A DNA stretch of 36,733 nucleotides from an uncultured Chthoniobacterales bacterium (GCA_964196045.1 CAXMRH010000154.1:1-36733), one strand, 5' to 3'; shown: positions 12,880-32,335, numbered from the stretch's first letter. Notes: generated by a model not told the origin, from the sequence alone. A program made the numbers and translations.

Positions 12880-12904
12880 CGTCCAATCGTACGTCCCGGA
12901 AGGT

Positions 12905-13792
12905 CTACACCTCTCGCCAGGGTCGGGCATTGGCGACAGCCATCGCCCGAAGCTCGGCGAAGTGGTCCGAGACCTCGCCTGCAATCACCTCTCGACGTAG
13001 CAACGGGCTGGCGTCGCTCGCCGGGCGCCAGATCGCGCGGCCGCCCGTGAACCCGGAGCACCCGTTGTCGAATGCCACCTTGAGTTGAGCTCGGTACTGC
13101 TCGAAGGTCACACCCGAGGACAACAAGACCCATGGTTGACAGCATGCGTCGTCGACGGCTGCACAGGCGTCTGCCCACCCAGAAGGATCCGAGGGATCAC
13201 CCGGGAACTCGATCTTCAAGACATCGATCGGTAGATCGGTGAGCTGGCGGACCGTGTCGAGCACAACTGCGGGACGATCGGCATCGTTCATCCCGAATGC
13301 GACGGGTTCCACCAGGAACGCCAGATCGAGGTCGGCGCAGATACCAGCGGTGTCAGAAACGACCTTGCGCTGCTGCTCGGCGTGATCGAGACGTTCCGGT
13401 GCGTAGGGCAGGAGCAGCTTGGCTGCGCTCGCGCCGAACTTCTTTGCGTCGAGCGCCGACCATCCTTCGAGCATGGTCGTCGGTCCTTCCCAAGGATCCT
13501 GCATATACCCCTGCGCCTCAAGCGCGGCCATGAACCCACTCGTGCCCGAGAGTGCCCCGGACTCGATCACGTGAGGAAGGCTGAATTCGGGCTCGAGCAT
13601 CACGCCGCTTGCTTGCTCACCCACGCCACGAATGAGTTCGTCCTTGAACTTCGCGATGTCCGCATCGGTGGCACCGTCAGGGAGCACCGCTTTGAGCGAG
13701 TCACGATGGTCGATTGCCAGAATGGTGAAGACCCCGTCGTTGGTCGCAAGCGTGTCGAGACCGCGCATCTTTCCGGGCGTCATCGCATGCAT
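12905..13792 (-). CDS. class I aldolase of the LacD / tagatose-1,6-bisphosphate aldolase family
   Basis: Colinear with recalled LacD blocks: NDGVFTILAIDHRDSLK, VMLEPEFSLP, IDVLKIEFP (Schiff-base Lys block), PWVLLSSGV...GGRAIW. Start is uncertain: ATG 13792 (1 nt after the upstream stop), ATG 13804 or GTG 13822. Confidence 0.8.
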   Translation of the reverse strand: MHAMTPGKMRGLDTLATNDGVFTILAIDHRDSLKAVLPDGATDADIAKFKDELIRGVGEQASGVMLEPEFSLPHVIESGALSGTSGFMAALEAQGYMQDPWEGPTTMLEGWSALDAKKFGASAAKLLLPYAPERLDHAEQQRKVVSDTAGICADLDLAFLVEPVAFGMNDADRPAVVLDTVRQLTDLPIDVLKIEFPGDPSDPSGWADACAAVDDACCQPWVLLSSGVTFEQYRAQLKVAFDNGCSGFTGGRAIWRPASDASPLLRREVIAGEVSDHFAELRAMAVANARPWREV

Positions 13793-13793
13793 G

Positions 13794-14687
13794 TCAGGCT
13801 CCATCTCCAGCGGGCATGCCACCGGGGTTGTTCAGATTGGGGGTTTGCATGACCGGCTGGGTCCAGGCGCTGAGGTCGCCGTTCTCCCAGTCCTGGTGAA
13901 TCCAGGTGAAGTCCTCGTGGAAACAGGGAGGCGTCACCCGTTCCTTGTCGACCAGTTCACCGGCGAGATAGTTGAGGAAGAACATGTTCGAGCCTGGGCA
14001 GGCCACGCTCGAGTGATATCCCTTGGGCACCAGAGCCGTGTCGCCGTCATGGAGGATGACCGTCTCATCGAACTCGGCCTCGGGGGCCCAATTGCGATGC
14101 ATCGCGAAGCCGGTGCCAGGGTCGAGGCGGAAGAAGTAGGTCTCTTCGAGGTAAGGCGAGCCTTCGATTCCATCGTGGCGATGTGGCGCCCAACCCGACC
14201 AGCACCCGCGAGGCACGTACACCTCGTAGAGAATGAGGCGCTCGGCGTCAACAGGGGGTGCCAGCACGTGATTGACCTGGCGGTGTGATGCCCCGCCCCC
14301 ACGAACCTCACTCTTCATCTGGTTCGGCGTAATGAGGCGGGTCGGATAGATCCCTTCAGCTGGAGCCGACCCAATCGCGAACTCGAAGTCGCTTTCGGCT
14401 ACGACGAGCATCTTGTCGCCAGGAGTCGCGTAGACGATGTGCGGCATCTCTTCGAACACGCTCGTCCGCGAGATCGAGAAGGCGGTGCCACCGGCGGTGA
14501 CAGAGGCGGATCCTGCGAGAGGCACGATGGCAGTTTCTTGACCGGGACGTACATCGTTGTATGTCTCGCCAGCGTCGAGGGACACCACCCGAAAACTGAG
14601 GTACTTCCAGTCCGCGGATTCAGGTGTGACGTTCAAGAGGACGCCGTTGCCACCACTGTTGCGAACCAGGCTGTTTCGTTCTGTCAT
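13794..14687 (-). CDS. IolB/KduI-family cupin isomerase, divergent paralog
   Basis: ATG 14687 lies 2 nt after the SDR stop. RGGGASHRQVNHV, WAPHRHD and YLEETYFFRL parallel the IolB blocks in the second copy at 24207-25121. It carries an extra ~45-aa C-terminal tail. Confidence 0.75.
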   Translation of the reverse strand: MTERNSLVRNSGGNGVLLNVTPESADWKYLSFRVVSLDAGETYNDVRPGQETAIVPLAGSASVTAGGTAFSISRTSVFEEMPHIVYATPGDKMLVVAESDFEFAIGSAPAEGIYPTRLITPNQMKSEVRGGGASHRQVNHVLAPPVDAERLILYEVYVPRGCWSGWAPHRHDGIEGSPYLEETYFFRLDPGTGFAMHRNWAPEAEFDETVILHDGDTALVPKGYHSSVACPGSNMFFLNYLAGELVDKERVTPPCFHEDFTWIHQDWENGDLSAWTQPVMQTPNLNNPGGMPAGDGA

Positions 14688-14689
14688 AT

Positions 14690-15559
14690 CTACTTCTCTT
14701 CCCACGCGAAGTGTTCGGGCACCGGCTGAGCGCGAGGTAGCTGGCCCACCCCCGGAATCGTTTGATCAAAATCGAGGCTCACCCCAGACATCATCCCGGA
14801 CTCTGTCGAAGCGAGGAAGCAGATTCCACGCGCCACTTCCTGCGGTTTGAGCAGGCGGCCGGTGGGTTGTGCTGCCTCAGCAGCCACGAGCCAGTCTTCT
14901 GGAGCGTCGTGGAAGCGCTTCTGCGTCTCATGTTCGGAGGGAGTATCCATCCAGCCGGGGCTGAGCATGTTGACCCGAATGTTGTCGGCCATCAGAGAGA
15001 ACGCAGCATTCTTGACCAGTGTTTCGCCCGCATGTTTCGACGTCGAGTAGGGCCAAAGAACCTCGTCGCCCCCGTGGTGCGCGACGCTCCCGATCAGCAC
15101 CATCGTTCCCATCACACCTTCACGTTTCATAATCTTGGCCAGGCCGGTGATGAAGAGAGCTGGCATCTTGATGTTGACGCCGAGCATGTCGTCCCACATC
15201 GTCGCCGTGGTGTTCCACACCGAACCTCGCCATGTGGCCGCAGCACAGTTCACGAACACGTTCACCACACCGAAGACACGATCGACCTCGTCGATCACAG
15301 CCTGCACACCAACATCGGACCGAAGGTCGGCACTCACAAACACGGCCCGACAGCCGTCGCCATCGAGGGCTGCAGCTGCAGCCTCACCCTTCTCCACGAC
15401 TCGGCCAACGAGCACGAGGCCCACTGCACCGCGCGCCTTCATGAGCTGAGCGGTCGCGTAGCCGAGCCCCTGGGTTCCCCCAGTAATCACGGCGACTTTC
15501 CCAGCGAATGAGGCGTGTCCGAATGGATTCGACGTATCCAGAGTCTGATCCATGCTCAT
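14690..15559 (-). CDS. short-chain dehydrogenase/reductase (SDR)
   Basis: ATG 15559 is preceded by GGGGAGG. Cofactor motif VITGGTQGLG and catalytic YSTSK (YxxxK). Confidence 0.85.
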   Translation of the reverse strand: MSMDQTLDTSNPFGHASFAGKVAVITGGTQGLGYATAQLMKARGAVGLVLVGRVVEKGEAAAAALDGDGCRAVFVSADLRSDVGVQAVIDEVDRVFGVVNVFVNCAAATWRGSVWNTTATMWDDMLGVNIKMPALFITGLAKIMKREGVMGTMVLIGSVAHHGGDEVLWPYSTSKHAGETLVKNAAFSLMADNIRVNMLSPGWMDTPSEHETQKRFHDAPEDWLVAAEAAQPTGRLLKPQEVARGICFLASTESGMMSGVSLDFDQTIPGVGQLPRAQPVPEHFAWEEK

Positions 15560-15635
15560 CCAACCTCCCCAAAATTTGTATGTCTGAACGCGCCAGTCGT
15601 GCACAGACCTACGAATATTCTCAATTGTGCGGACA

Positions 15636-16640
15636 TCATTGGACCTCCGCCACCTTGACGACTCGGCTCTCCTTGAACGACAGTGCCGCTGCCATACCGA
15701 TCGCCAACGGCGCTCGACCGTCGTTTCCAGTCACGGGCATCGTTCCACTCTCCAAGCCGTCGACGAATGCCTGCCATTCGGCCACGTAGCTCGGGATGTA
15801 CCGCTCGAGAAAAAAGTAGGGGATGTTGGTGAGTCGGGTGCCGTCTGGGCCGTGCACCTCGGTCGTGTGACTCCGTGGGTTCTCCGACACCGCCATACCG
15901 CCTGAACCGAATACCTCGACGCGCTGGTCGTAGCCGTATACCGCCTGACGACTGTTGTCGATCGTGGTGATCGCGTCGTTCTCGTGGGTGAGGACGACGA
16001 CGGCAGTGTCGACATCACCGGCTTCACCAATTGCAGGGTCGACACGCACGGCTGCCGTCGCATACACGTCGACAACCTCGCTGCCTGTGATGAATCGAGC
16101 CATGTCGAAGTCGTGAATGGTCATGTCGTTGAAGATGCCGCCCGAGACCTTGATGTACTCAATTGGTGGCGGAGCCGGATCACGACTCGTGATTCGCAAC
16201 ATGTGCACGTCGCCGACCGACCCATCGATCACGGCTTGTCGTACCGCTGCGTGCGCGGCATCAAAGCGGCGGTTGAAGCCGATCTGCAGTGGTACGCCTG
16301 CCGTCTCCACGGCAGCGAGGGCCCGATCGACCTCCGACAGATTCAACGAGATCGGCTTCTCGAGGAAGATTGCCTTGCCCGCCTCGGCAGCAGCGACCAC
16401 GAGGTCCACGTGTGTGTCCGTGCTCGTGCAGATCGCGACCGCGTCGACGTCGCTTGACATCACCTCTTCGGCGCTTCCAGCCAGCTCACAACCGAGATCG
16501 TCGGCGACCGCACGTGCGCCCTCGGTGTACACATCGAAGACGGAATGCAGATCGAGACCGGGCACCTGACGGTCGATGAGTTCGGCGTGCATCTTGCCGA
16601 TTCGACCTGTCCCGAGGACGGCGATGGATGGTTTCGTCAT
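15636..16640 (-). CDS. iolG: inositol 2-dehydrogenase-type Gfo/Idh/MocA oxidoreductase
   Basis: 334 aa. N-terminal IAVLGTGRIGKMHAEL Rossmann motif and the EKP motif (FLEKPISL). The ATG overlaps the upstream stop (ATGA 16637-16640). Confidence 0.75.
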   Translation of the reverse strand: MTKPSIAVLGTGRIGKMHAELIDRQVPGLDLHSVFDVYTEGARAVADDLGCELAGSAEEVMSSDVDAVAICTSTDTHVDLVVAAAEAGKAIFLEKPISLNLSEVDRALAAVETAGVPLQIGFNRRFDAAHAAVRQAVIDGSVGDVHMLRITSRDPAPPPIEYIKVSGGIFNDMTIHDFDMARFITGSEVVDVYATAAVRVDPAIGEAGDVDTAVVVLTHENDAITTIDNSRQAVYGYDQRVEVFGSGGMAVSENPRSHTTEVHGPDGTRLTNIPYFFLERYIPSYVAEWQAFVDGLESGTMPVTGNDGRAPLAIGMAAALSFKESRVVKVAEVQ

Positions 16641-17671
16641 GAGCTTGCTCCTGGCTGGAGGGCGTGGCCGATCCGGGCGGAAGTCCCGGCGGGGTCGGTC
16701 GTGGCAGAAGAGGCGGCGTGGCCGATCCGGGCGGAAGTCCCGGCGAGATATTGCTTCTTAAAACGTTCGATGAGGTCGCGAACCGGCGTTGCTCGGCGTC
16801 CGAGGATTCGATCAGTCCGTGGTGTGGTCAGCGATGTGTCGTACGGGACCGGCGCCGAAAGCATCGACGCTGGATCGGGTGGACCGAATTGCAGGAGATC
16901 GGCATCGAGATCGAAGACGTCGCAGGTGAGTTCCGCCAACTCTCGACGCGTGATCGAATCAGCCCCACAACAGTGGAATACCCCGTCACTGCGGGCTGCT
17001 CCGACGGCGAGCATGATCTCGCCACATTCGAGCGCGAGCGAGGGAGTTGCAACCATGTTTATGTCGTCGGCCTCCCACACGGTGAACGACTCGCCAGCGG
17101 ATAGAGCGTCGACGATGCTCGCGACGAAGTATCCGAATCCGCGGTCCTGGGATCGTGGCGTCGTCGGCCGAGCGAGGTGGAGCCCGTTGACGCCACTCAC
17201 CCTGGCGACAGCTCCACCTGCTTCGAGCGCGACCATTTCCGAGGCCAGCTTGAGGGTGCCGTACAGGTTGATCGGGTTCGGCGGGGTTTCCTCGTTCGCA
17301 CCAGCTTGGGTGCCGTCGAAGACCCAGTCCGTCGAGACCAACACGTAGGCCGCGTCAACGCCGGAACGGGCCGCCCGAACAGTCGAACGGGTCGCGCCCA
17401 CATAGGCCGCCCACGATGCCTCCCGGTCGGCATACATACGGTGCCAGTCGTTCATGATGGCGCAGTGGATCACGACGTCCGGATCGAACTGTTCGATGTT
17501 TTGCCGCACCGATTGGTCGTCGGTCATATCGACCGGAGCCACCTGATACGCCGCGTCGGTCGGTGGTACGAAGGTGTGCGCTGTGGTCAGCGTCTCGTGG
17601 CCAGCGTCGACCGAGGCCCGCACGATGTTCGAACCGACGAAACCTCCTCCACCTGAAATCCAGACCCTCAC
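16637..17671 (-). CDS. RmlD-like NAD(P)-dependent sugar reductase/epimerase
   Basis: GTG 17671 overlaps the upstream stop (GTGA 17668-17671). ISGGGGFVGSNIV glycine motif. STDWVFDG...NLYGTLKLASE (YxxxK) is typical of RmlD_sub_bind proteins. The last ~37 aa are encoded by the repeat segment. Confidence 0.75.
   Translation of the reverse strand: MRVWISGGGGFVGSNIVRASVDAGHETLTTAHTFVPPTDAAYQVAPVDMTDDQSVRQNIEQFDPDVVIHCAIMNDWHRMYADREASWAAYVGATRSTVRAARSGVDAAYVLVSTDWVFDGTQAGANEETPPNPINLYGTLKLASEMVALEAGGAVARVSGVNGLHLARPTTPRSQDRGFGYFVASIVDALSAGESFTVWEADDINMVATPSLALECGEIMLAVGAARSDGVFHCCGADSITRRELAELTCDVFDLDADLLQFGPPDPASMLSAPVPYDTSLTTPRTDRILGRRATPVRDLIERFKKQYLAGTSARIGHAASSATTDPAGTSARIGHALQPGASS
16661..16745. 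repeat. two copies of a 31-bp direct repeat (ggcgtggccgatccgggcggaagtcccggcg), 54-bp period
   Basis: Read directly: copies at 16661-16691 and 16715-16745. Each contains CCGGG-n7-CCCGG. Lies in the last ~110 nt before the iolG start. Confidence 0.9.
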
Positions 17672-19071
17672 GGCGTGCCAGGTGTTTCCACGCGACCGTC
17701 GCGCATTCGGATCGGGTACGTGGTCAGTGCTTCCTTGATCGGCCGGCGGGTTCCTTCGCCGGTGCGGAGATCGAAACGCCCGTTGTGTTTCGGGCACTCG
17801 ATCTCACAGCCAAGGATCGTGCCGGCGGCAAGATCGGCCTCCCCGTGCGTGCAGATCCGATCGACGAGCACCGTGTCGCCGTCCTCGGTGCATGCCAACA
17901 GGCGCTCGCTGCCATCGATGGTGACGGAGCGCGACTGACCCGCGCCAAGATCGCTGGGACCGAGATCAATCCATCCATCGTCGGTGCTTTCGCCCGCCCA
18001 CTCGAATCCCTGCACAATCGACCCTCGAGTGCCAGGGACATCCGGGATGTCGCGTTCGAGTTCCCACCTCGGATCAACATGCTGCCGGCGAAACGCGGTG
18101 ATGATCTCCTTGTAGGCATGGAAGGTATTCGGCGAAGGCTTCGCTAGCTGGCCGTTGATCTCCGCGTGCAGCGCCGGAAGGTTGTAGTAGGGCACGGCGG
18201 GGAACATGTGGTGTTCGACGTGGTAGTTCATGTTCAGATACAGGAAACGGAAGATCGGGTTCATCAGGACGGTCCGCGATGACTGCCGATGGTCGAGGAC
18301 GTCTTCTTTCAGGCCCGCATGCTGGGTGACGCCGAAGAAGACCACGAGCCAGCCGCCGTAGACCGTGGGCAGGCCGATGAGCAAGAGCGGGTAGAAAGAC
18401 GTTGAGGCGATGGCCCAAACGATCGTAGCAAGCCAGATCGCCACGTAGACCCGAGCCTCCCAAGCGATACGTTTGCGATCCTGCTCCGGCACGAGGACGT
18501 CGACGACAGGGTCCTTCCACCCGAACGCGTACTTCACGATCGTCTTGATGAGGGTGCTGCCACCCTGAATGTGGGTGAAGGTCCACGCGAGCCGAGCGAC
18601 CGAAGGCGGCCGTGGAAAAACGATCTCCGCATCGCGACCGACGATGACCGTGTCGGTGTGATGGCGAAAGTGTGACCACCGCCAGAATGTGGCGCTCCTC
18701 CCGAGCAGGAAGCTGGCCGGGTAGTACACGAGATCGTTCAGCCAGGGTGTTCGAAACGCGGTGCCATGTCCGCTTTCGTGCCAACGCGAGTCCGCCGCGC
18801 CGCCGGCAACGGCTCCGTAAGCGACGAACGCAGGCAGCGCCCACCAACTACCCCGAAGACTCCAGGCAAGGACAGCCAGTCCAGCTATGAGACCAACCCA
18901 GATGATCAGATCGACGATTGGACGAACGTCGCGGCGCTCCATGAGCTCGCGCATGCGCGCCGGATCGACCTCTGCCTGAAACCATTTCCCCTCAGCGAGG
19001 CCGCGCTCCGCGGCGCGCGCAGATTCAGGTCCGACCAGGCTGTAGTCACGTGAGGGAAGGGTTGTGGTCAT
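17668..19071 (-). CDS. membrane histidine-box di-iron oxygenase/desaturase-family domain fused to a C-terminal Rieske [2Fe-2S] domain (MocD-MocE-like)
   Basis: 467 aa. TM helices near the N-terminus. His boxes HESGH, HFRHH and HVEHH. C-terminal CTH-x16-CPKH Rieske motif. The ATG overlaps the upstream stop (ATGA 19068-19071). Confidence 0.85.
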   Translation of the reverse strand: MTTTLPSRDYSLVGPESARAAERGLAEGKWFQAEVDPARMRELMERRDVRPIVDLIIWVGLIAGLAVLAWSLRGSWWALPAFVAYGAVAGGAADSRWHESGHGTAFRTPWLNDLVYYPASFLLGRSATFWRWSHFRHHTDTVIVGRDAEIVFPRPPSVARLAWTFTHIQGGSTLIKTIVKYAFGWKDPVVDVLVPEQDRKRIAWEARVYVAIWLATIVWAIASTSFYPLLLIGLPTVYGGWLVVFFGVTQHAGLKEDVLDHRQSSRTVLMNPIFRFLYLNMNYHVEHHMFPAVPYYNLPALHAEINGQLAKPSPNTFHAYKEIITAFRRQHVDPRWELERDIPDVPGTRGSIVQGFEWAGESTDDGWIDLGPSDLGAGQSRSVTIDGSERLLACTEDGDTVLVDRICTHGEADLAAGTILGCEIECPKHNGRFDLRTGEGTRRPIKEALTTYPIRMRDGRVETPGTP

Positions 19072-20027
19072 GGGTGGTACACCTCCGGGATGTTGTGGTC
19101 AGGGACAGGCACAGGCCCGCCCTGGGTGAGCGAGCTCAGCGCGGCTTCAGCAACGAGCTGTGCGGCGAGGGCGTCGAGGGCCGATGGCCCAGTGGCCTCG
19201 GGATCATCGAGCGATGCGACCCATCTCCGATCCTGAATTCGGTACGCGTCGGCAAACCAGCCAAACCAGTCGAGGCCGATGGGAGTGCGGTGATCGCCGT
19301 CAATGCGAAGTCGGGGTCGTTGGGGCGCCGAAGTCGTCACCATGCCGTTGACTGCTGTCGCTTCGACTTCCACCTCGTAGGCATAGGAGTCATCGCTGAA
19401 CTCGATCGTGGCCGTTGCACCTGACGCGAGGCGAAGGACGAGCAGGACGTGTGTCAATCCGCCTGGGCGAGGCATCGAGCGGGCATCCACGTCGACCACG
19501 CGTCCAGCGAGCCAATGGATCGTGTGGATGTCGTGGATCAGAGATTGAACAATGACGACGCCGGGTGGTCTGGCCACCTCATTCGTGTTCCGATGGCTGC
19601 AGCGGAGATAGTGAAGATCACCAAGCGCCGCGAGTTGGTCGGCGAAGGCCACGTGTGCCGGATCAACTTCGCGCATGAACCCGACCTGCACGCGCCGCTG
19701 ACCGATCGACACTTCCTTGTCGATCACCGCGTGCGCACCTGCCAGGTCATCGGACAACGGCTTCTCACACAGGACGCGGCTGCCAGCATCGAGCGCTGTG
19801 ATCGTCAACTCTGCGTGGGTGTTGTCAGGGGACGCGATGATGACGCCATCCCATCCCTCTGCGGCGCATGCGTTCACGTCCGTCGTCACGGGAACGCCAA
19901 GCTTGTCGAGGTCGGGGTGAGGGAAAGGGTCGGCAACGGCAGCTAGCTCTACGCCGGGAATCGCCATCAGCGTCTCCGCGTGGAAGCGGCCCATGCCACC
20001 TGCCCCGATGACGGCAAGCTGTTTCAT
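19068..20027 (-). CDS. Gfo/Idh/MocA-family oxidoreductase (inositol dehydrogenase-like)
   Basis: 319 aa. LAVIGAGGMGRFHAETL and CEKPL motifs. The ATG shares 1 nt with the iolD stop (TGATG at 20025-20029). Confidence 0.8.
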   Translation of the reverse strand: MKQLAVIGAGGMGRFHAETLMAIPGVELAAVADPFPHPDLDKLGVPVTTDVNACAAEGWDGVIIASPDNTHAELTITALDAGSRVLCEKPLSDDLAGAHAVIDKEVSIGQRRVQVGFMREVDPAHVAFADQLAALGDLHYLRCSHRNTNEVARPPGVVIVQSLIHDIHTIHWLAGRVVDVDARSMPRPGGLTHVLLVLRLASGATATIEFSDDSYAYEVEVEATAVNGMVTTSAPQRPRLRIDGDHRTPIGLDWFGWFADAYRIQDRRWVASLDDPEATGPSALDALAAQLVAEAALSSLTQGGPVPVPDHNIPEVYHP

Positions 20028-21883
20028 CAGATGCGCTGCGCTTTCTTACCCTCGATCATCTCGGCCTTTGCGTTGCGGACACCTTCGAGCTCGCTCACCT
20101 CAGGTACTCCGACCTCCCAGAAGGATCCTCCTTCGGTCCAGCTGTAGGCATCGGTCACCAGTGCGATCACGTAGGTGCGATCGGCGGCCTTGGCCCGGCC
20201 GAAAGCTTCCTCGAGTTCGTCGATGGAAGTGACCGTCTCGCTCATGGCACCCATCGCTTCAGCGTGTTTGGCGAAATCAACCGCCACCGGGTTCACCACG
20301 GTCGGGTTGTCCTTGATCAAGTTGTTGTAGGGCTCGCCACCCATGTTCGTCTGCAGACGGTTGATCACGGCGAAGCCACCGTTGTCGCACACGATCACGA
20401 TCATCTTGTGGCCATGAATGACCGAGCTGTAGATATCGCTGTTGAGCATCATCCACGAGCCGTCGCCGGTGAAGACGACAACTTCCTTGTCGGGCTGGGC
20501 CATCGCAGCGCCCCAACCTCCACTCGTTTCGTACCCCATGCAGCTGAAGCCGTACTCACAGTCAAAACTGTTGAGGTGTTTAGCTCGCCAGCCGTTGTTG
20601 ACCTCACCAGGGAACCCACCAGCTGCTGCCAAGGCGAACGTCTTCTCATCGGCGAGCCGATCGATCGCTCCGACGACCTGGGCATACGTCGGCAGGCCGC
20701 TGTCGCTGCGTGCTTCTTTGGCAGCGATCTTGTCGATGTAGGCGTTGTGTTGGGCAACCTCGTTGGCCATGGTCGTTGACCAGTCATCGGGCGCTCGATA
20801 CGACCCAAGGGCGTTACCGAGTTCGCCGAGTGTTTCCTTCGCGTCACCAACGAGTGGCATCGACTGACGTTTCGTCGCATCGAAGCGTGCAGTGTTCAGG
20901 CCAATGATCGACACGTTGTCGTTCTTGAACACGGTCCAGGATCCGGTCGTGAAGTCGAGCAAACGTGTTCCGACAGCGAGCACGACATCGGCCTCGCCCG
21001 CAAGCGCATTCGCTGACGTCCCGCCGGTCACGCCGATGGGTCCGCCATACATCGGGTGGTTCCATTCGACACAGGCCTTGCCAGCCACGGTCTCGACTAC
21101 CGGGATGTTGTGAGCTGTGGCGAACGATGCGAGCTCTTCTTCGGCGAGCGAGTAGTGGACACCGCCGCCTGCGACGATGAGAGGCTTCTCTGCCGCGAGT
21201 AGCGCCTCTGCAGCAGCGGCGAGTTGACGACGGTCGGCCCGAGGTCGAATGATCTCGTGCACCTGTTCGTCGAAGAAGCTGAGCGGGAAGTCCCACGCCT
21301 CCGCGCCCACATCCTGTGGAAGGCCGAGGAACGCCGGACCACAATCTGCCGGGTCGAGCATGGTGTGTATCGCATGCGGCAGTGAGCTGGTGAGTTGCTC
21401 TGGCCGGGTGATCCGATCCCAGTACCGGGTGACAGCTCGAAAGCTGTCGTTCACTGTCTGGGTCGGGTCGCCGAAGTGTTCGACCTGTTGCAGTACCGGG
21501 TCCGGCAGGCGACTCGTGAAGGTATCGCCCGAAATCAGGAGGATCGGCAACCGATTGCTGTGTGCCACACCGGCAGCGGTGACCATGTTGGTCGCGCCTG
21601 GTCCGACCGAACTCGTCGCAACCATGATCTGTCGACGCCGTGTGGCCTTGGCGTAGGCAACACCGGCCAGCGCCATGCCCTCTTCGCTCTGTCCGCGGTA
21701 CGTGGGCAGCTCGTCCTTCGCCCGTTCCAGCGCATGCCCGAGCGACGTCACGTTGCCATGCCCAAAGATCCCGTACACACCGCCAAACAAAGGCGCCACA
21801 GACCCATCCACAAGCACCGATTTCTGGGCAATCAGATAACGAACAATCGCCTGCGAAGTAGTAAGCCGAACGGTCTTGCTCAT
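20027..21883 (-). CDS. iolD: 3D-(3,5/4)-trihydroxycyclohexane-1,2-dione acylhydrolase (ThDP-dependent)
   Basis: 618 aa. Colinear with recalled B. subtilis IolD from the N-terminus (VRLTTSQAIVRYL...IFGHGNV...PDPVLQQVEH...RYWDRITRPEQL). Confidence 0.9.
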   Translation of the reverse strand: MSKTVRLTTSQAIVRYLIAQKSVLVDGSVAPLFGGVYGIFGHGNVTSLGHALERAKDELPTYRGQSEEGMALAGVAYAKATRRRQIMVATSSVGPGATNMVTAAGVAHSNRLPILLISGDTFTSRLPDPVLQQVEHFGDPTQTVNDSFRAVTRYWDRITRPEQLTSSLPHAIHTMLDPADCGPAFLGLPQDVGAEAWDFPLSFFDEQVHEIIRPRADRRQLAAAAEALLAAEKPLIVAGGGVHYSLAEEELASFATAHNIPVVETVAGKACVEWNHPMYGGPIGVTGGTSANALAGEADVVLAVGTRLLDFTTGSWTVFKNDNVSIIGLNTARFDATKRQSMPLVGDAKETLGELGNALGSYRAPDDWSTTMANEVAQHNAYIDKIAAKEARSDSGLPTYAQVVGAIDRLADEKTFALAAAGGFPGEVNNGWRAKHLNSFDCEYGFSCMGYETSGGWGAAMAQPDKEVVVFTGDGSWMMLNSDIYSSVIHGHKMIVIVCDNGGFAVINRLQTNMGGEPYNNLIKDNPTVVNPVAVDFAKHAEAMGAMSETVTSIDELEEAFGRAKAADRTYVIALVTDAYSWTEGGSFWEVGVPEVSELEGVRNAKAEMIEGKKAQRI

Positions 21884-22106
21884 GCGGTGAACCCCCTAGT
21901 TGGAGTGATTGTCAGGGCCAGTGGTGAACCCTTAGCTGAGCGCCGTGGCGCAGCAGGCGGACGGTGTGTATGTCGAGCGAAGCCCCTCACCCGGCAAACG
22001 GCGTCGGGCCGGCAGGCGGTGCGTCGAGCGCAGCCCGACTTTGGTGGAGCGAAGCGGAACCCAGAGGGCGAAGCCGGCGTGACGTCGGACGGAGCGGCGC
22101 AGCTGG

Positions 22107-23279
22107 TCATGGGAGCGTCAGGTTCACGACGTCTTGCCATGTTCCGGTCTCAGTCGACTTGAGAAGCGCAGCTTGCACACTCACGTAGTCGACTGCTTCT
22201 TTGAAGCTTGCGGAGTGCTTCGTTCCGGACGCCACAGCCTTGAGGAACTCGTAGTCCTCGATGGTGATCAGGTCTTCGAACGCGATGCTGTTGGCGTCAC
22301 CGGGGACGAAGTTGCCGTGGTACGGGTAACGGTCGCCGCCGCGTACGGTCGTGTAGCCCCGAGCCTGGTCTTTCAACAAAAACAGCCCCATCTCGTTCAT
22401 CGTTTCGAGGTTCCAGTTCGCTGCGCCCTTCGTGCCGTAGACATCGAATGCGTTCTGGCTCTCGGGACCGATGATCGACCGGCTCGTCTCGAAGGTTCCA
22501 ATCGCGCCATTCTCAAATTCGCAGAAGGCGCCGAAGTAGTCCTCGTTGGTGACGGGCCCAGTGGGATCGCCCGGTTCGCCGCGTTCGTAATGGGTTCCGC
22601 CGGCCTTGGGGAGGGGGCGCTCAGTGATGAAGGTCTTCTGCTGCCCCATCACGCGGGTAATCGGACCGACCAGCATGTGTGCGAGATCCATCGAATGGCT
22701 GAGGATGTCCGTGCTCACGCCGTAACCGGCTTGATCGACCTCGAACCGCCACGAGAGCAATCCCATGGGATCCGAGCCATACATCGAGAAGAAGCGGCCC
22801 CGGTAGTTCGTGATCTCACCCAGCTCACCGTCGGCGATCAGGTTCTTGAGGTATTGCACGAGCGGTGCAAACCGGTAGTTGTAGCCCACGCCTGTGGTCA
22901 CTCTTGCGTCCCGAGCCGCTTTCTCCGCCCGCACTGTCTGATCGGGCTTTCCGCCTACCGGCTTCTCACAGAAGATGTGCTTGCCGGCCTCGGCAGCGGC
23001 CACACAGATCTCTTCGTGCAACATGTTCGGAGCGGTACACGTGACGACATCGATGTCGTCGCGGTCCATGACCTCCCGCCAGTCCGACACGGCTTCTTCG
23101 AAGCCGAAGCTGTGCACTGCTTGGTCGCGGCGCTGCTCCATGTTGTCGGCGCAGATCGCAAGCACGGGGTCGTATTCGCGATCCTCGAAGAGTTGCGGGA
23201 TGCGCGCGTAGCTGCGGCTATGGGCCTGGCCCATCCAGCCGAGGCCGATAACTGCGATCCGAAGTGGTTGACGGTCCAT
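22107..23279 (-). CDS. Gfo/Idh/MocA-family oxidoreductase
   Basis: ATG 23279 is preceded by AAGGAA. LRIAVIGLGWMGQAHSRSY and FCEKPV motifs. 390 aa. Confidence 0.8.
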   Translation of the reverse strand: MDRQPLRIAVIGLGWMGQAHSRSYARIPQLFEDREYDPVLAICADNMEQRRDQAVHSFGFEEAVSDWREVMDRDDIDVVTCTAPNMLHEEICVAAAEAGKHIFCEKPVGGKPDQTVRAEKAARDARVTTGVGYNYRFAPLVQYLKNLIADGELGEITNYRGRFFSMYGSDPMGLLSWRFEVDQAGYGVSTDILSHSMDLAHMLVGPITRVMGQQKTFITERPLPKAGGTHYERGEPGDPTGPVTNEDYFGAFCEFENGAIGTFETSRSIIGPESQNAFDVYGTKGAANWNLETMNEMGLFLLKDQARGYTTVRGGDRYPYHGNFVPGDANSIAFEDLITIEDYEFLKAVASGTKHSASFKEAVDYVSVQAALLKSTETGTWQDVVNLTLP

Positions 23280-23304
23280 TGCGATTTCCTTGATGTCGGG
23301 GGGT

Positions 23305-24210
23305 TCAGAGTTCTTGCGGGTTGAGAAGGTGTGTTGGGCGTTCACCTGCGAGCGCCATGCGAACTTGGTCGAAGGCCATTCGTTCCATGCGAGCGCGTCC
23401 AGCAGTGGTGTTCGATGCGATGTGCGGGGTGACTATCACGTTGTCCATGTGGAGCAACGAGTGGTCGGGGTAGAGCGGCTCGGGGTCGGTCACGTCGAGG
23501 CCTGCCCCCATAAGGTGGCCAGACTCGAGCGCGGCCACGAGGTCGTCCGTGACAACGATGGGACCACGTGCACAGTTGATCAGGACGGATCCTGGCTTCA
23601 TGTTGGCAAACGCTTCAGCATCGATCAGGCCGATGGTCGACGGTGTCGCAGGTGCGTGGATCGAGAGCACGTCGGAGCGCTCGAGGAGTTCATCGATGCC
23701 GACTGAGTCGTCATGTAGGGGGTCGGTGATGATCACGTTCATGCCGATCGCCTCAGCCATGACGGCGACAGCTTGACCTATGCGGCCATACCCGAGGAGC
23801 CCGAGAGTCTGACCTTGTAACTCCATGCTCTGTTGATGACTCACGTAGTCGCCGGTGGCTGCACGAAGACGGTTGGCCGAGGGGACGAGCTCGTGGGTGA
23901 CCGCCATCATGAGCGCAATCGTGTGTTCAGCCGTCGACGTCGTTGGACCCTCTGGTGTATTTGTGACGAGGATGCCTCGCGACGTTGCTGCGTCGACGTC
24001 GACCGCGTCATAGCCAATCCCGATGCGGGCCAAGACTCGGAGATCAGGCAACGAGTCCAGCACGTCGGCCGTATACGGCTCTCCTCCAGCAAGTATCGCG
24101 ACTGCGCTTGCTCGCTCGGAAGGGTCTGGACCAAGTGCCGAGTAACCCTCGGCCTCGTGCTCGGCTCTGAGATGGTCGGGGCACCCGCGCACCCACCACA
24201 ACCGCGTCAT
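23305..24210 (-). CDS. D-isomer-specific 2-hydroxyacid dehydrogenase family protein
   Basis: 301 aa. NAD motif LGLLGYGRIGQAV. Catalytic region NCARG...TPHIAS. The ATG overlaps the iolB stop (ATGA 24207-24210). Confidence 0.85.
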   Translation of the reverse strand: MTRLWWVRGCPDHLRAEHEAEGYSALGPDPSERASAVAILAGGEPYTADVLDSLPDLRVLARIGIGYDAVDVDAATSRGILVTNTPEGPTTSTAEHTIALMMAVTHELVPSANRLRAATGDYVSHQQSMELQGQTLGLLGYGRIGQAVAVMAEAIGMNVIITDPLHDDSVGIDELLERSDVLSIHAPATPSTIGLIDAEAFANMKPGSVLINCARGPIVVTDDLVAALESGHLMGAGLDVTDPEPLYPDHSLLHMDNVIVTPHIASNTTAGRARMERMAFDQVRMALAGERPTHLLNPQEL

Positions 24211-25121
24211 CGCGCGACCCTGCCTTCGGCGGTCATGAGAGGCAAGCGGGCGTCCATCGGTTGACCGGACAGCTCATCCCGGACCCAGTGGTGGGTCGGG
24301 TCATCGCAGAACGCCATGTTGCGCTCGCCGCCGGGTCCGGCAAGGACGTTCAAGTAGTACATGTCGTAGCCCGGCGCTGCGATACACGGGCCGTGATACC
24401 CGCGAGGCACCAGAAAAATGTCGCCGTCGCGCACGACCACGTTCTCGTCGATGATGGGCATCCCTTCGTGGCCAATGCCCGTGTAGGTCCGATGTATACC
24501 GAAGCCAGACGGTGTGTAATCGATCGAACCGGCGGTGCCGATGCGGAAGTAGTAGATCTCTTCGTTGTTCACCTCACATTCGGGTGAATCGTCATGTTTG
24601 TGGGGTGGATACGACGACCAGTTGCCGTCAGGTGTGTAGACCTCGACGCACATCAACTTGTCGGCGCCGGCGAACTGCTCGGGTGAGCAGAAGTTGTTGA
24701 TCTGGCGGCTCGCTTGTCCCCCGCCGCGCAGCTCGACGCTCACGTCTTCTGCTGAGCCGTAGTGCAGTTCGGTGCGATTTGTCGTCCGCGCTGAACACAA
24801 CGCGAGCTCGACGGGTTGATCGCTCGTTGCGTCGATCGTGACCGTCGTGTCGATCGGGACATAGGCCCAATCGGTGACGCGGGCGAAAACGGATCCTCGA
24901 CCCTCGAGCTCAAAACGTGTGCCTTCCGCGCTGACAGCAGAGGACGACCCCGACAATGGCACGACAGCGAACTCGTCGCCCCCGGTCTCGAACGTCCGAG
25001 ACTCTCCGGCTTCGAGTCGAATGGTACGGATGCCGCTGTACGTCCAGCCCGCTGTCTCGGGGTCGAGCACGATCGCATCTGTGCCATCGCTGAGCGTGCC
25101 AGCGGGTTTGTGCAGACTCAT
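24207..25121 (-). CDS. iolB: 5-deoxy-glucuronate isomerase
   Basis: ATG 25121 (MSLHKPAGT...) overlaps the iolC stop (ATGA). Motifs RGGGQASRQINNF, YPPHKHD and NEEIYYFRI. The Arg-rich N-terminal extension in the ORF track is rejected. Confidence 0.85.
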   Translation of the reverse strand: MSLHKPAGTLSDGTDAIVLDPETAGWTYSGIRTIRLEAGESRTFETGGDEFAVVPLSGSSSAVSAEGTRFELEGRGSVFARVTDWAYVPIDTTVTIDATSDQPVELALCSARTTNRTELHYGSAEDVSVELRGGGQASRQINNFCSPEQFAGADKLMCVEVYTPDGNWSSYPPHKHDDSPECEVNNEEIYYFRIGTAGSIDYTPSGFGIHRTYTGIGHEGMPIIDENVVVRDGDIFLVPRGYHGPCIAAPGYDMYYLNVLAGPGGERNMAFCDDPTHHWVRDELSGQPMDARLPLMTAEGRVAR

Positions 25122-26146
25122 GTTGCGCCACGTTCGGCCAGCAGCGACTCGATGTCGGCGATCGTCGGCATGTCGTCGGCACACATGAGTCGCCCAGCGA
25201 CGATGGCGCCGGCAGCGTTGCCCCATTTGATGATTGTCTCTGGGTCCCAGCCGCTCAGCAGCCCGTGGCAGAAGGCACCGCCGAACGCGTCTCCGGATCC
25301 GAGGCCACAAACGACATCGACCCAGTATGGGGGCACCGAGACGCGGTGCCCGTCTGCGGTCGCGATCATGACGCCGTCGGCGCCGAGCTTCATCACGGCC
25401 ATCTCGAGGCCGGCCTCGAGCAAACGGTCCGCGGCAAGGTTCATGTCTCGCGTGCCGACCGCTATCTCGCACTCGTCTTTGTTTCCGATGGCGACCGTGA
25501 AACGATCGAGCATCGGGCGAATCGCTTCTGATGCCTGCTCTGGTGACTGCCAGAACATCGGACGCCAGTCGAGATCGAGCACCGTGTGGCTTTTGCGACC
25601 GCGAAGATCGAGCAGCTCGGTGACGGTGGCCGCCGAACGTTCGTCGGAGAAGCGCGATGCGGGTAGCCAGAAGATCGGCACGTCGCGGACGACGTCGGCA
25701 TCCACATCGCTCGGGTCGATATTTTGGTCTGGCGCGCGTGGTGATCGGTAGAAGATGATCGACGGGTCTTCGGGCGGGTCGAGTTCGGCGAAGGCCAGAG
25801 GAGTCTGGAGCTCCAGGTCGGTTGCGATGAACCGATTATCGACACCGAAGGTGTGCTCGAGCGCGTGCCGGACGTAATCGCCGAACTGGTCATCGCCGAC
25901 CTTGGTCACCAAGGCAACCTTGTGCCCAAGCCGAGCTGCGGCAACAGCAACGTTCGTGGCCGTACCACCGATCGATTTCTGGAAGGTCGTCACGTTTCGC
26001 ATCGGCTCGCCAAGCTGCAGCGCGTAGAGGTCGACGCTCACCCGCCCAATCGTCAGAAGCTCGAGCTCAGTCGGTAACACCTCGACACTCCCGGTCGAGA
26101 TCCCCCGACCGTCCTCATGGTCGCTACGCGAGCTCCGCTCCCCCAT
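25118..26146 (-). CDS. iolC: 5-dehydro-2-deoxygluconokinase (PfkB family)
   Basis: PfkB signatures LLTIGRVSVDLY and GLGSGDAFGGAF. Start is ambiguous. ATG 26146 gives a 22-aa N-terminal tail encoded by repeat copy A. GTG 26080 is preceded by GGGAG at 8 nt and gives a canonical N-terminus. Confidence 0.85.
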   Translation of the reverse strand: MGERSSRSDHEDGRGISTGSVEVLPTELELLTIGRVSVDLYALQLGEPMRNVTTFQKSIGGTATNVAVAAARLGHKVALVTKVGDDQFGDYVRHALEHTFGVDNRFIATDLELQTPLAFAELDPPEDPSIIFYRSPRAPDQNIDPSDVDADVVRDVPIFWLPASRFSDERSAATVTELLDLRGRKSHTVLDLDWRPMFWQSPEQASEAIRPMLDRFTVAIGNKDECEIAVGTRDMNLAADRLLEAGLEMAVMKLGADGVMIATADGHRVSVPPYWVDVVCGLGSGDAFGGAFCHGLLSGWDPETIIKWGNAAGAIVAGRLMCADDMPTIADIESLLAERGAT

Positions 26147-26214
26147 CACTTCTCGACACTCCCGGTCGAGATCCCCCGACCGTCCACATGGTCGCTACGC
26201 GAGCTGCGCTCCCC
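26081..26214. repeat. two tandem copies of a 63-bp element (61/63 identical), 71-bp period
   Basis: Read directly: copy A at 26081-26143 and copy B at 26152-26214. Self-complementary segments: ctcgac-n7-gtcgag and cgacc-n8-ggtcg. Confidence 0.9.
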
Positions 26215-27015
26215 TTTGGAGCTGGTCTCCAAATGCGCGTGAAACGCGGCTAGTTCGTCGTCGGCGATGGGGACGAGAGTTGGGTCGTCAGGGAACGCTC
26301 CGGACTGAACGTCTGCGACGTACTCCGTGTACGCCGCGACTCGTTCGGCCTGAAGTCGGTCTTCTTCGGCTGCGAGGTTTCGGTACTGCTTGGCGTGGCG
26401 GGGGACGTGGCCTCGGTTGGTTCCGAGGATGTCCGTCGAAAACAGATACTGCGCGTCACAGCCAGCGCCCGACCCCATGGAGATCATGTACATCGCCGTG
26501 CGCTCCGAGATCGCTGTCGCCACGGCGGCCGGGACCACTTCGATCTCTGCGGCGAATGCGCCTGCTTCTTCGAGTGCCTTTGTCTGTTCGAAGACCGACA
26601 TGGCACTCGCCGCTGTCTTGCCCACAGCTCGGAATCCACCCGTCCACGTTCGTCGCGCCGGGATCAGACCGACATGGCCAACGACAGGAATTCCCTCGGC
26701 CCGCATACGCGAAATTGTTTCGAGGCTGGCCGCGCTCCACACCGCGTCCGCGCCCAGCTCCATCATTGAGAAACCGGCGCGCAGGTAGTCGTCGGTGGTG
26801 ACATGTACGCCGTACTCCAACCCAGCAACTATGAACGCCGACGGCGCCGCGAGGCGGTAGTCGTCGCTCATGCTTGTGTCTTGCACGGTGATGATGTCGA
26901 TGCCTGCATCACTTGCAGCGATTGCTTCTGCGAGTGAGTCGACGTACACGTCCGTCCGCTGTCGTGAGCCTTTTTCGGCAAGGAGATCCGCCACAGTGGG
27001 ACGCATCGAAGTCAT
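26146..27015 (-). CDS. PanB-family (3-methyl-2-oxobutanoate hydroxymethyltransferase-like) paralog
   Basis: 289 aa. ATG 27015 is preceded by GGAGGAGG. Colinear with recalled E. coli PanB blocks (IPVVGHVGLIPARRTWTGGFRAVGK; LEEAGAFAAEIEVVP; ISMGSGAGCDAQYLFSTDILG; HVPRHAKQY). The N-terminal motifs are diverged. The last ~24 aa come from repeat copy B. Confidence 0.7.
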   Translation of the reverse strand: MTSMRPTVADLLAEKGSRQRTDVYVDSLAEAIAASDAGIDIITVQDTSMSDDYRLAAPSAFIVAGLEYGVHVTTDDYLRAGFSMMELGADAVWSAASLETISRMRAEGIPVVGHVGLIPARRTWTGGFRAVGKTAASAMSVFEQTKALEEAGAFAAEIEVVPAAVATAISERTAMYMISMGSGAGCDAQYLFSTDILGTNRGHVPRHAKQYRNLAAEEDRLQAERVAAYTEYVADVQSGAFPDDPTLVPIADDELAAFHAHLETSSKGERSSRSDHVDGRGISTGSVEK

Positions 27016-29949: not shown

Positions 29950-30048
29950 ACATTTTCCCCCGACATGGTCCTCTGCTCACGAATGATCTGATCGATCACA
30001 CGCTCCCCCGAGAACACACCTAATTTTCCGAACTTGCAAGTTGACCGG

Positions 30049-30080
30049 CGGGCTGGGGTGAATGGATCCACCCCAGCCCG
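30049..30080 (-). terminator. intercistronic stem-loop with a perfect 12-bp stem (cgggctggggtg / caccccagcccg) between the SBP and permease genes
   Basis: Read directly. Lies 42 nt after the SBP stop. No U-tract follows, so it is more likely a partial terminator or mRNA stabiliser than a strong terminator. Confidence 0.45.
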
Positions 30081-30121
30081 ACAGTCGGTACTACTACTAC
30101 TACGTGAGCTGAACTACTCGA

Positions 30122-31159: not shown

Positions 31160-31234
31160 TGTATTTCCCCTCCTGGTGGGATTTCTTATTGGTGTTCCCG
31201 GAGACGAGATGAACGACTCGCGACATGACGGTGG

Positions 31235-32119: not shown

Positions 32120-32161
32120 GAATCCCAAGTTTCGACGGCCCCCTGTCAGGCTTTGGTCGAT

Positions 32162-32322: not shown

Positions 32323-32335
32323 CTACAGTGCGGCC

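Follow-up and report, generated by a model that had tools for sequence, protein, structure and literature searches.

What does a membrane oxygenase joined to its own electron carrier do in the middle of an operon for inositol breakdown? The question is raised by a stretch of 36,733 nucleotides from an uncultured Chthoniobacterales bacterium (GCA_964196045.1 CAXMRH010000154.1:1-36733), the whole of which we refer to as the window, and in particular by a 467-amino-acid (aa) open reading frame (ORF) on its minus strand, in which an integral-membrane, histidine-box di-iron domain is followed by a C-terminal Rieske [2Fe-2S] domain. A preliminary description of this DNA, made from the sequence alone, had likened the encoded protein, from here on the fusion, to the rhizobial rhizopine proteins MocD and MocE combined in one polypeptide and had suggested an O-methyl-inositol as substrate. 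Here, we propose that the fusion is a di-iron/Rieske monooxygenase of inositol catabolism that demethylates O-methyl-inositols, and we assign to this explanation as a whole, the substrate included, a probability of roughly 55%.

Using Pfam profile searches, as the preliminary description had advised, we found both domains above their gathering cutoffs. FA_desaturase (PF00487) matched residues 75-314 with an E value of 1.4e-38 and a score of 133.6 bits (cutoff 29.7), and Rieske (PF00355) matched residues 372-453 with an E value of 7.7e-12 and a score of 45.4 bits (cutoff 20.3). The histidine boxes HESGH, HFRHH, and HVEHH as well as the Rieske motif agree in position with these matches, as expected from the motifs reported earlier, and in the arrangement CTH(407)-x16-CPKH(426) exactly 16 residues separate H409 from C426. 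In an alignment of 67 homologues, the eight His-box histidines and the Rieske ligands C407, H409, C426, and H429 were invariant, and the same was true for H251, H261, and H302. Hydropathy in the N-terminal domain peaks near residues 57-66 and 215-240, and an AlphaFold2 model derived from the alignment (mean pLDDT of 87.4 and pTM of 0.73) predicts long helices in this domain at residues 49-71, 78-102, 196-223, and 235-251. pLDDT values below 50 were limited to residues 355-360 inside the linker between the two domains; the linker region is variable and gapped in the homologue alignment, and split MocD proteins terminate there.

In structural comparisons using Foldseek, the Rieske domain matched Rieske ferredoxin components of the dioxygenase type with TM-scores of 0.86-0.89 and root mean square deviations of 1.3-1.5 Å. 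The Foldseek output was mostly driven by the Rieske domain, and the top match of the N-terminal domain was 8xks_K, a subunit of the algal Ycf2/Orf2971-FtsHi complex (TMq of 0.47). When the PDB was searched by sequence with the whole protein, the matches were dioxygenase Rieske ferredoxins alone (best E value of 1.5e-16), and no PDB chain, AlkB structures included, matched the N-terminal domain at E values up to 1; similarly, no AlkB-type NCBIfam model matched the fusion at E values up to 0.1. The resemblance to AlkB and XylM noted in the preliminary description thus holds at the level of the superfamily but does not extend to specific similarity.

The fusion gene is joined to both of its neighbors by short overlaps, which had been pointed out before and are evident when the minus strand is read. 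At 19071-19068, its start codon overlaps the stop codon of the upstream Gfo/Idh/MocA gene in an ATGA, while at 17671-17668 its stop codon overlaps the GTG start codon of the downstream RmlD/epimerase-like gene in a GTGA. This GTG corresponds to residue 43 of the mechanically delimited ORF at 16637-17797, in which the RmlD/epimerase Pfam match starts at residue 44. Identical 4-nucleotide overlaps are present in the independent gene calls of three relatives (L085, L087, and L089), all of which have the same Gfo/Idh/MocA gene directly before the fusion gene. Moreover, among the matches listed for the protein, both domains were on one protein in all 120 homologue clusters. Based on the two domains, the conserved ligands, the overlaps in relatives, the confident model, and the uniformly fused homologue clusters, we conclude that the fusion is real and not an artifact of a frameshift or of sequencing. 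We have hardly any doubt that it is a two-domain protein in which a His-box di-iron domain is connected by a short flexible linker to a Rieske domain and that these domains are homologous to MocD and MocE.

Using tblastn with the fusion protein against 72,556 plasmids, we observed that it is collinear with adjacent genes of Rhizobium and Sinorhizobium; the alignments cover 97-99% of the protein at about 44% identity. These rhizobial genes are annotated as "fatty acid desaturase family protein" and "MocE family 2Fe-2S type ferredoxin," and the depositors of R. etli CIAT 652 chose the names mocD, mocEa, and mocFa for them. Across the rhizobial comparisons, the catalytic domain was 46-49% identical and the Rieske ferredoxin 36-41% identical. 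At the locus L083, which is on the Rhizobium indicum plasmid pPR12A203 and has a layout matching the published rhizopine locus (PMC10107442), the fusion was 46% identical to MocD over 340 aa (E value of 6e-100) and 36% identical to MocE over 97 aa (E value of 2e-18), which bears out the fused MocD-MocE oxygenase of the preliminary description. L083 comprises genes for an IolE/MocC-like protein, a Gfo/Idh/MocA protein, a binding protein, and a MocR-type regulator of the pyridoxal phosphate family, followed by mocD, mocE, mocF, a gene for a protein related to ketopantoate hydroxymethyltransferase (PanB-like), and purU, and a gene for a DegT-type aminotransferase is near the moc genes. The majority of rhizobia have a LacI-controlled operon consisting of a mocD-like gene, a mocE-like gene, a mocF-like gene for a Pyr_redox_2 reductase, and a PanB-like gene; as in the window, a divergent gene for a LacI-family regulator is located upstream of such split mocD operons.

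In the comparison with curated NCBIfam models, the top match of the C-terminal domain was TIGR02377 (MocE_fam_FeS) with 62.8 bits, which is under the cutoff of 136.15, MocE of L083 scoring 178. The N-terminal domain scored about 36 bits with the models for DesB, GntB, and CrtR, the cutoffs of which are 380-500 (for DesB, 35.8 bits and a cutoff of 500), and MocD of L083 was equally weak. Because the curated models remained below cutoff and the contexts are those of cyclitols and sugars only, the fusion does not qualify as an acyl-lipid or acyl-CoA desaturase, and the earlier preference for a MocD-type enzyme over an acyl-lipid desaturase stands. Nor does it have the layout of the alpha subunit of a Rieske non-haem oxygenase, as the Rieske domain ends 14 residues from the C terminus and only the Rieske part aligns. 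On the other hand, the protein is in a sister clade of actinobacterial two-domain proteins rather than inside the MocD clade in a neighbor-joining (NJ) tree of the N-terminal domain, and instead of an adjacent separate MocE together with MocF, it has a fused MocE and no local MocF-like gene. The collinear tblastn alignments, the identities to the L083 proteins, MocE_fam_FeS as the top match, and the lack of a strong match to a desaturase model support the MocD/MocE interpretation, and we class the fusion as a fused variant of the MocDEF system and not as MocD or MocE proper.

We note that tblastn calls fusions too readily in this family. In the rhizobial loci L001:12001-13425, L002:12001-13452, and L083:8989-10437, mocD and mocE are in the same frame and separated by one stop codon plus 7-15 codons; therefore, tblastn reads through and may miscall fusions. 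The alignments of loci linked to a PanB-like gene ran to residue 461, yet all of those genes were split when checked at the level of ORFs. We accordingly rejected as fusions the matches in rhizobia and at PanB-like-linked loci that had appeared to be in one piece, in which the in-frame stop codon between mocD and mocE is read through. A change in one stop codon could make or break a mocD-mocE fusion.

To place the fusion in its family, we scanned one genome per GTDB species and analyzed the best 80 of 589 relatives at the ORF level and in the NJ tree, which is unrooted, includes no outgroup, and has no support values. Among these 80 loci, three architectures corresponded to three clades. Split MocD and MocE proteins, usually with a MocF-type reductase, are encoded by 11 loci (Alphaproteobacteria, Cohnella, one Solirubrobacterales, one Acidimicrobiales, and one Verrucomicrobiia); two-domain MocD-Rieske proteins of about 470 aa are encoded by 29 loci (Acidimicrobiia, Nocardioides, and other Actinomycetota) in the clade that includes the window; and all of the remaining 40 loci (L028-L082) encode three-domain MocD-Rieske-FNR-like proteins of about 760 aa (Verrucomicrobiota, Acidobacteriota, Planctomycetota, Bacteroidota, and Chloroflexota), for which L092:8001-10292 is another example. 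The two-domain fusion is, thus, the standard form in Actinomycetota and not a rarity. Cultured bacteria with the two-domain gene include Nocardioides aquiterrae JCM 11813 and Nocardioides sp. PD653-B2 (L015 and L019), and Oleiharenicola lentus is a cultured example for the three-domain form. In the three-domain representative P0123, which is 46% identical to the fusion, the Pfam domains FAD_binding_6 and NAD_binding_1 follow the Rieske domain. The three-domain proteins are 42-47% identical to the fusion over residues 8-461 and form at least 120 clusters at 90% identity (P0123 and P0271-P0389) under the NCBI name "NqrF." A search of 1.84 billion cluster representatives returned 240 at E values up to 1e-30 and 1,327 at E values up to 1e-10, and by this measure the family appears to be distinct and of moderate size.

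Two observations on individual members were made during these analyses. JGI labels some two-domain proteins (P0001, P0004, P0008, and others) as "Na+-transporting NADH:ubiquinone oxidoreductase subunit F" in the absence of an NqrF-like flavin domain, a name that may have been transferred from three-domain relatives. In an Acidimicrobiales metagenome-assembled genome (MAG), split mocD, mocE, and mocF genes and a PanB-like gene lie beside genes for IolD and IolB (L072:10001-13409) and group with alphaproteobacterial sequences in the tree, as would be expected if Acidimicrobiia had acquired the split module horizontally.

Because the three-domain proteins add FAD- and NAD-binding domains and the split forms, which carry a Pyr_redox_2 reductase, have its gene next to them, we infer for every architecture an electron transfer chain from reductase to Rieske cluster to di-iron center. 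The two-domain form is the exception among the architectures in that a reductase is not encoded nearby. In agreement with the preliminary description, Pfam searches of the 30 largest ORFs of the window identified neither an aminotransferase nor a ferredoxin reductase, and tblastn with a rhizobial MocF-like protein and an FNR-like domain gave no significant match to a reductase of either kind in the window. Likewise, Pfam identified no MocR-type regulator in the window.

The fusion gene is part of a co-directional operon (Table 1) that begins with genes for an IolE-like protein, a CUT2-type ABC transporter, the PanB-like protein, IolC, IolB, a 2-hydroxyacid dehydrogenase, a Gfo/Idh/MocA protein, and IolD and continues with genes for a second Gfo/Idh/MocA protein, the fusion, the RmlD-like protein, a third Gfo/Idh/MocA protein, an SDR protein, a second IolB, and a DeoC-type aldolase. 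Besides the fusion, the oxidoreductases of the operon, therefore, are three Gfo/Idh/MocA proteins, the SDR, the RmlD-like protein, and the 2-hydroxyacid dehydrogenase. The iol functions in the window comprise IolD, two IolB proteins, IolC (PfkB), the DeoC-type aldolase, and IolE-like and IolG-like proteins, the IolE and IolG matches being below the equivalog cutoffs; IolA was not found in the window. Relatives that are 70-88% identical to the fusion have the same operon, the operon is also present on complete Acidimicrobiales chromosomes (OZ220743.1, OZ252146.1, OZ220491.1, and OZ220709.1), and the RmlD-like gene is kept downstream of the fusion gene in 10 of the 29 loci of the actinobacterial clade.

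For a comparison of genomic contexts across clades, we counted loci in which the oxygenase gene is flanked on either side by 5 kb or more. A first clustering of neighbors was contaminated by antisense ORFs of high-GC DNA, and the clusters C6, C10, C17, C19, C22, C28, and C30 were removed by eye. In the actinobacterial clade, at least two of IolB, IolC, IolD, and IolJ were encoded nearby at 13 of 23 loci and a Gfo/Idh/MocA protein at 17 of 23, whereas iol genes were present at 0 of 17 loci of the three-domain clade. An aldose epimerase gene was found at 0 of 29 loci of the two-domain clade. The recurrent neighbors in the three-domain clade encode an aldose 1-epimerase and a TIM-barrel protein; in an example from a complete genome, the oxygenase gene is accompanied by genes for a fucosidase, AraC, RhaM, RhaT, an aldose epimerase, a Gfo/Idh/MocA protein, a TIM-barrel protein, a sugar-acid dehydratase, and an RraA-like protein. 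These data suggest that the three-domain clade acts on methylated or deoxy sugars rather than on cyclitols, and the family at large seems to be one of carbohydrates as well as cyclitols rather than of cyclitols alone. The tie to a cyclitol context proposed earlier is, therefore, retained for the fusion's own clade but not for the family as a whole. Genes for acyl-lipid, acyl carrier protein (ACP), or coenzyme A (CoA) metabolism were found in none of the surveyed contexts of the family.

The PanB-like gene of the operon has its closest counterparts in the rhizobial moc loci. Its product scored 129.2 bits with one PanB model (cutoff 272) and 107.8 bits with another (cutoff 207.55), and the product of the rhizobial gene after mocF was likewise far below these cutoffs. 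It shares 56% identity with the PanB-like protein of L083, the gene for which follows mocF, and 61% with the R. leguminosarum protein. R. etli RHE_PE00443, which belongs to the same subfamily, has 5 of 12 PanB active-site residues and fails to complement a panB mutant (PMC3082293). We consider the gene in the window to encode a divergent ketopantoate hydroxymethyltransferase paralogue and a probable functional partner of the fusion. In a reverse survey, in which metagenome contigs were searched with an alignment of PanB-like proteins only and loci were counted if 3 kb or more flanked the gene on either side, mocD and mocE were present at 22 and mocF at 20 of 28 loci, usually in the order LacI<, mocD>, mocE>, mocF>, PanB-like>. 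At least nine loci have purU, which encodes formyl-tetrahydrofolate deformylase, directly beside the PanB-like gene, and this linkage suggests folate-linked handling of the one-carbon (C1) unit released by the oxygenase. Loci at which the two genes adjoin include L083:11747-13483, L102, L107, L108, L113, L114, L117, L123, and L139. The window has no purU. Five further, long metagenome loci (L097, L104, L137, L150, and L156) have a PanB-like gene at about 10001-10800 but lack mocD-like, mocE-like, and iol genes over a distance of 10 kb, and the PanB-like subfamily thus has at least one other context.

In the mechanism that we propose, an O-methyl-inositol of plant or algal origin would be taken up by the ABC transporter of the operon. 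An NAD(P)H-dependent flavoprotein reductase encoded elsewhere would reduce the Rieske cluster, and the tethered Rieske domain would pass single electrons to the di-iron center at the cytoplasmic face, which would activate O2 and hydroxylate a methyl C-H bond of a substrate of the pinitol, ononitol, sequoyitol, or bornesitol type. The resulting hemiacetal would break down to formaldehyde and free inositol; the Gfo/Idh/MocA, RmlD-like, and SDR oxidoreductases would convert the inositol to scyllo-inosose, to be degraded by IolE, IolD, IolB, IolC, and IolJ, and the PanB-like protein would take care of the C1 unit set free, which might be passed to tetrahydrofolate. The reaction type would, by analogy, be that of the published genetic model of MocDEF, in which mocDEF is one transcription unit needed for catabolism of the rhizopine 3-O-methyl-scyllo-inosamine (PMC10107442, citing Bahar 1998 and Rossbach 1994), while we infer the substrate, the electron donor, and the role of the PanB-like protein from the operon and its relatives. 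With no MocR-type regulator and no aminotransferase in the window, and with the gene located between that for IolD and those for the downstream oxidoreductases, a neutral methyl-inositol would be the most economical substrate. Circumstantially, a root exudate with pinitol as its main component causes a modest induction of the R. mesoamericanum homologues of mocDEF (PMC5789663).

Several observations weigh against this proposal. Substrate and even reaction type could differ from those of MocD, because the fusion is in a sister clade and not within the rhizobial MocD clade. In the literature searched, we found no biochemical characterization of MocD, whether split or fused, and the evidence for demethylation by MocDEF is genetic. 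The window lacks a MocF-like or FNR-like gene, and none was found within 10 kb at 29 of 29 two-domain loci. The binding protein encoded in the window shares only 25% identity with its MocB-like counterpart in L083 and gives no pointer to a methyl-inositol ligand. The PanB-like gene, present in the window and in L085, is absent from L089 and from 29 of 29 GTDB two-domain loci, and because it is missing from most two-domain loci, it is not obligatory. Finally, a recent study that sought a pinitol-demethylating enzyme did not find one, and the pinitol-degrading bacterium was concluded to need no demethylation, with vanB genes alone tested (PMC9788770).

We also weighed other explanations. The oxygenase could hydroxylate a C-methyl-inositol of the laminitol or mytilitol type or a deoxy-inositol of the quercitol type, and the PanB-like protein would then remove the hydroxymethyl group from the C-methyl product after oxidation of the neighboring carbon. 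C-methyl-inositols of the laminitol and mytilitol type are made by algae, many relatives of the fusion come from aquatic, marine, or sponge-associated Acidimicrobiia MAGs, and the reversed PanB reaction is the removal of a hydroxymethyl group to tetrahydrofolate, a chemistry that would fit the PanB-like gene in the operon. The unusually large number of extra oxidoreductases in the operon and the ability of the superfamily, exemplified by AlkB, to hydroxylate unactivated methyl groups (PMC10113152) are also in favor of such a substrate. However, the sole genetically defined relative acts on an O-methyl ether with the same PanB-like gene present in L083, the PanB-like protein is compatible with O-demethylation because it accompanies this moc-type locus, and most two-domain loci have no PanB-like gene, and we regard a C-methyl- or deoxy-inositol as unlikely. 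Similarly, the substrate could be an O-methylated sugar, the product of which merely shares the downstream oxidoreductases with the iol genes. The three-domain clade adjoins genes for aldose 1-epimerase, the RhaM mutarotase, the RhaT transporter, and fucosidase and not iol genes, and P450-based oxidative demethylation of methoxy sugars is known (PMC6292453). This sugar context, however, is that of the other clade, whereas the clade of the window neighbors IolD, IolB, IolC, and IolJ and lacks the aldose epimerase, and the fusion gene itself is in the middle of an iol operon with 4-nucleotide overlaps; accordingly, a methylated sugar appears quite improbable to us.

The annotations point to lipids. 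With the Pfam name FA_desaturase, the NCBI product name "fatty acid desaturase," and an integral-membrane location, the fusion could be a desaturase or hydroxylase of fatty acids or lipids that sits in a sugar operon by chance. We give very little credence to this, as the score with DesB is a small fraction of the cutoff while the match to MocD is strong, the translational coupling to cyclitol genes is kept across the clade, other family members are in sugar clusters, and no acyl-lipid, ACP, or CoA genes are in the contexts examined. Moreover, the superfamily has small-molecule enzymes, and the fusion matched the models for GntB, an arginine hydroxylase, and for the carotenoid enzymes CrtR and CrtW, if weakly. 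The homology to MocD and MocE and the PanB-like partner shared with L083 would also be expected of a true demethylase of 3-O-methyl-scyllo-inosamine, that is, of opine-type catabolism in an actinobacterium. Against this, neither a MocR-type regulator nor an enzyme to take the amino group off an inosamine, be it an aminotransferase or a deaminating enzyme, is encoded in the window; the regulator is of the LacI type, a trait shared with the non-rhizopine mocDEF operons that most strains of Rhizobium and Sinorhizobium have; and the similarity of the binding protein to the MocB-like protein is low. The hosts are free-living Acidimicrobiia, whereas rhizopines are made in nodules by few rhizobial strains (PMC10107442), and we consider a rhizopine substrate extremely improbable. 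Demethylation of a neutral O-methyl-inositol, thus, is the explanation that we prefer.

The positions of the features discussed here are listed in Table 1.

Table 1. Positions in the window of the fusion gene, its domains and motifs, and the other genes of the operon
Feature	Position	Strand	Basis or remark
Fused MocD-like/MocE-like oxygenase gene	17668..19071	-	467 aa, ATG start; Pfam FA_desaturase + Rieske
Membrane di-iron oxygenase domain	18130..18849	-	residues 75-314; Pfam PF00487
His box HESGH	18766-18780	-	residue 98
His box HFRHH	18658-18672	-	residue 134
His box HVEHH	18208-18222	-	residue 284
Interdomain linker, weakly conserved	17974..18039	-	about residues 345-366
Rieske [2Fe-2S] ferredoxin-type domain	17713..17958	-	residues 372-453; Pfam PF00355
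Rieske motif CTH	17845-17853	-	residue 407
Rieske motif CPKH	17785-17796	-	residue 426
Gfo/Idh/MocA oxidoreductase, IolG-like	19068..20027	-	Pfam; TIGR04380 iolG 139 bits, below cutoff
RmlD/NAD-epimerase-like oxidoreductase, GTG start	16637..17671	-	Pfam RmlD_sub_bind + Epimerase
Distal operon genes (block)	12905..16640	-	Pfam; order as in L085, L088, L089
Gfo/Idh/MocA (distal)	15636-16640	-	Pfam
SDR	14690-15604	-	Pfam
Second IolB/KduI	13794-14705	-	Pfam
DeoC/LacD-type aldolase, IolJ-like	12905-13822	-	Pfam
Core iol genes upstream of fusion gene (block)	20027..26149	-	order kept in Acidimicrobiia loci L005-L020 and in L085
IolD	20027-21883	-	Pfam
Gfo/Idh/MocA (between IolD and 2-hydroxyacid dehydrogenase)	22107-23345	-	Pfam
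2-Hydroxyacid dehydrogenase	23305-24210	-	Pfam
IolB (upstream copy)	24207 to about 25115	-	Pfam; also given as 24207-25472
IolC/PfkB	25118-26149	-	Pfam
PanB-like gene	26146..27015	-	Pfam Pantoate_transf
CUT2-type ABC transporter and IolE-like gene (block)	27080..32488	-	Pfam
ABC ATPase	27080-27874	-	Pfam
ABC permease, double length	27871-29949	-	Pfam
ABC binding protein	30122-31159	-	Pfam; best PDB relative 4ru1_A (CUT2 binding protein), E 6.7e-56
IolE-like TIM-barrel gene	31235 to about 32130	-	TIGR04379 iolE 159 bits, below cutoff
Divergent LacI-family regulator	32300..33343	+	Pfam LacI + Peripla_BP_3

Some details of the operon and its surroundings were recorded in addition. The ABC permease has 692 aa and two BPD_transp_2 matches, and a form of about 700-800 aa is kept in related iol operons. 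The upstream IolB gene and the PanB-like gene are both present in the window and L085 and both missing in L089, as if gained or lost together. Directly after the operon, at 11509-12984 on the minus strand, is a GSDH gene for a glucose/sorbosone dehydrogenase of the pyrroloquinoline quinone type, which has the same position in L085 and L088. Beside the LacI-family regulator gene and TIM-barrel genes, a PhyH-family gene for an Fe(II)/2-oxoglutarate dioxygenase is located at 34694-35536 on the plus strand, and a PhyH-family gene recurs near the fusion gene in four Acidimicrobiia loci (L012, L023, L026, and L027). A Tad/type II secretion-like set at 7272-10550 on the minus strand (two T2SSF genes, a T2SSE ATPase gene, and a ParA/CbiA-like gene) lies downstream, has counterparts among the neighbors in relative L088, and is unrelated to the fusion.

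Legumes, conifers, and many other plants contain methylated inositols such as pinitol and ononitol as some of their most abundant soluble carbohydrates. In the literature searched, no bacterial methyl-inositol demethylase has been characterized, no FA_desaturase-Rieske fusion has been characterized, and no paper describes the fused proteins, of which databases already contain many under names that mislead; the picture of the family as a whole is new. If our proposal is correct, it would connect the MocDEF genetics of the 1990s with a nutritional capability that is widespread among bacteria of soil and water, correct thousands of annotations as "fatty acid desaturase" and "NqrF," and provide a natural series of split, two-domain, and three-domain forms for studying how electrons are supplied to membrane di-iron enzymes. 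The self-sufficient three-domain form would be attractive for biochemistry and biocatalysis, and the PanB-like/PurU linkage suggests a new coupling of oxidative demethylation to folate C1 metabolism. In its most far-reaching version, which we advance tentatively as a possibility, the fusion would be the long-missing bacterial methyl-inositol O-demethylase within a so far unrecognized, phylum-spanning family of membrane di-iron carbohydrate and cyclitol demethylases with three electron transfer architectures, and the PanB-like protein would represent a new, tetrahydrofolate-linked capture of the C1 unit instead of the release of formaldehyde.

Among known systems, MocD/MocE/MocF of S. meliloti L5-30 and R. 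leguminosarum, together with the LacI-controlled rhizobial operons, have a catalytic domain with all His boxes and a Rieske ferredoxin that are homologous to the fusion. The likeness extends to the Gfo/Idh/MocA, IolE-like, and iol genes, a sugar-type ABC transporter, a LacI regulator, and the PanB-like paralogue. The window differs from these systems in having a single polypeptide, no nearby MocF-type reductase, no MocR regulator, and no aminotransferase, and its protein belongs to a separate clade, has a C-terminal domain under the curated MocE cutoff, and occurs in an actinobacterial-type (Acidimicrobiia-like) setting. The three-domain MocD-Rieske-FNR-like proteins, also named "NqrF" or "MocE subfamily protein," have their first two domains in the same order as the fusion but have a FAD/NAD(P)H reductase domain of their own and sugar rather than iol contexts.

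The closest architectural analogue is the AlkB-AlkG fusion of Fontimonas thermophila (PMC10113152), in which a His-box di-iron monooxygenase is fused to a one-electron iron-sulfur carrier and the reductase is separate. AlkB-AlkG hydroxylates a methyl C-H bond, as would, by analogy, the fusion; however, its carrier is a rubredoxin and not a Rieske protein, its substrate is a hydrophobic alkane, and the kinship in sequence is at the superfamily level only. With respect to the proposed function, the closest analogue would be the P450 O-demethylase for 6-O-methyl-D-galactose of marine bacteria (PMC6292453) with its coupled formaldehyde detoxification (PMC9400963), as in both cases a carbohydrate-like nutrient would be stripped of a methyl ether by oxidation, with formaldehyde as a by-product that needs handling. 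That system belongs to an unrelated enzyme class, consisting of a soluble haem P450, a ferredoxin, and a reductase. Rieske non-haem O-demethylases of the VanA/VanB type also use a Rieske cluster and O2 for O-demethylation, but there the Rieske domain precedes the catalytic domain, which has mononuclear iron, whereas in the fusion it is a C-terminal ferredoxin-type module that would feed a membrane di-iron site.

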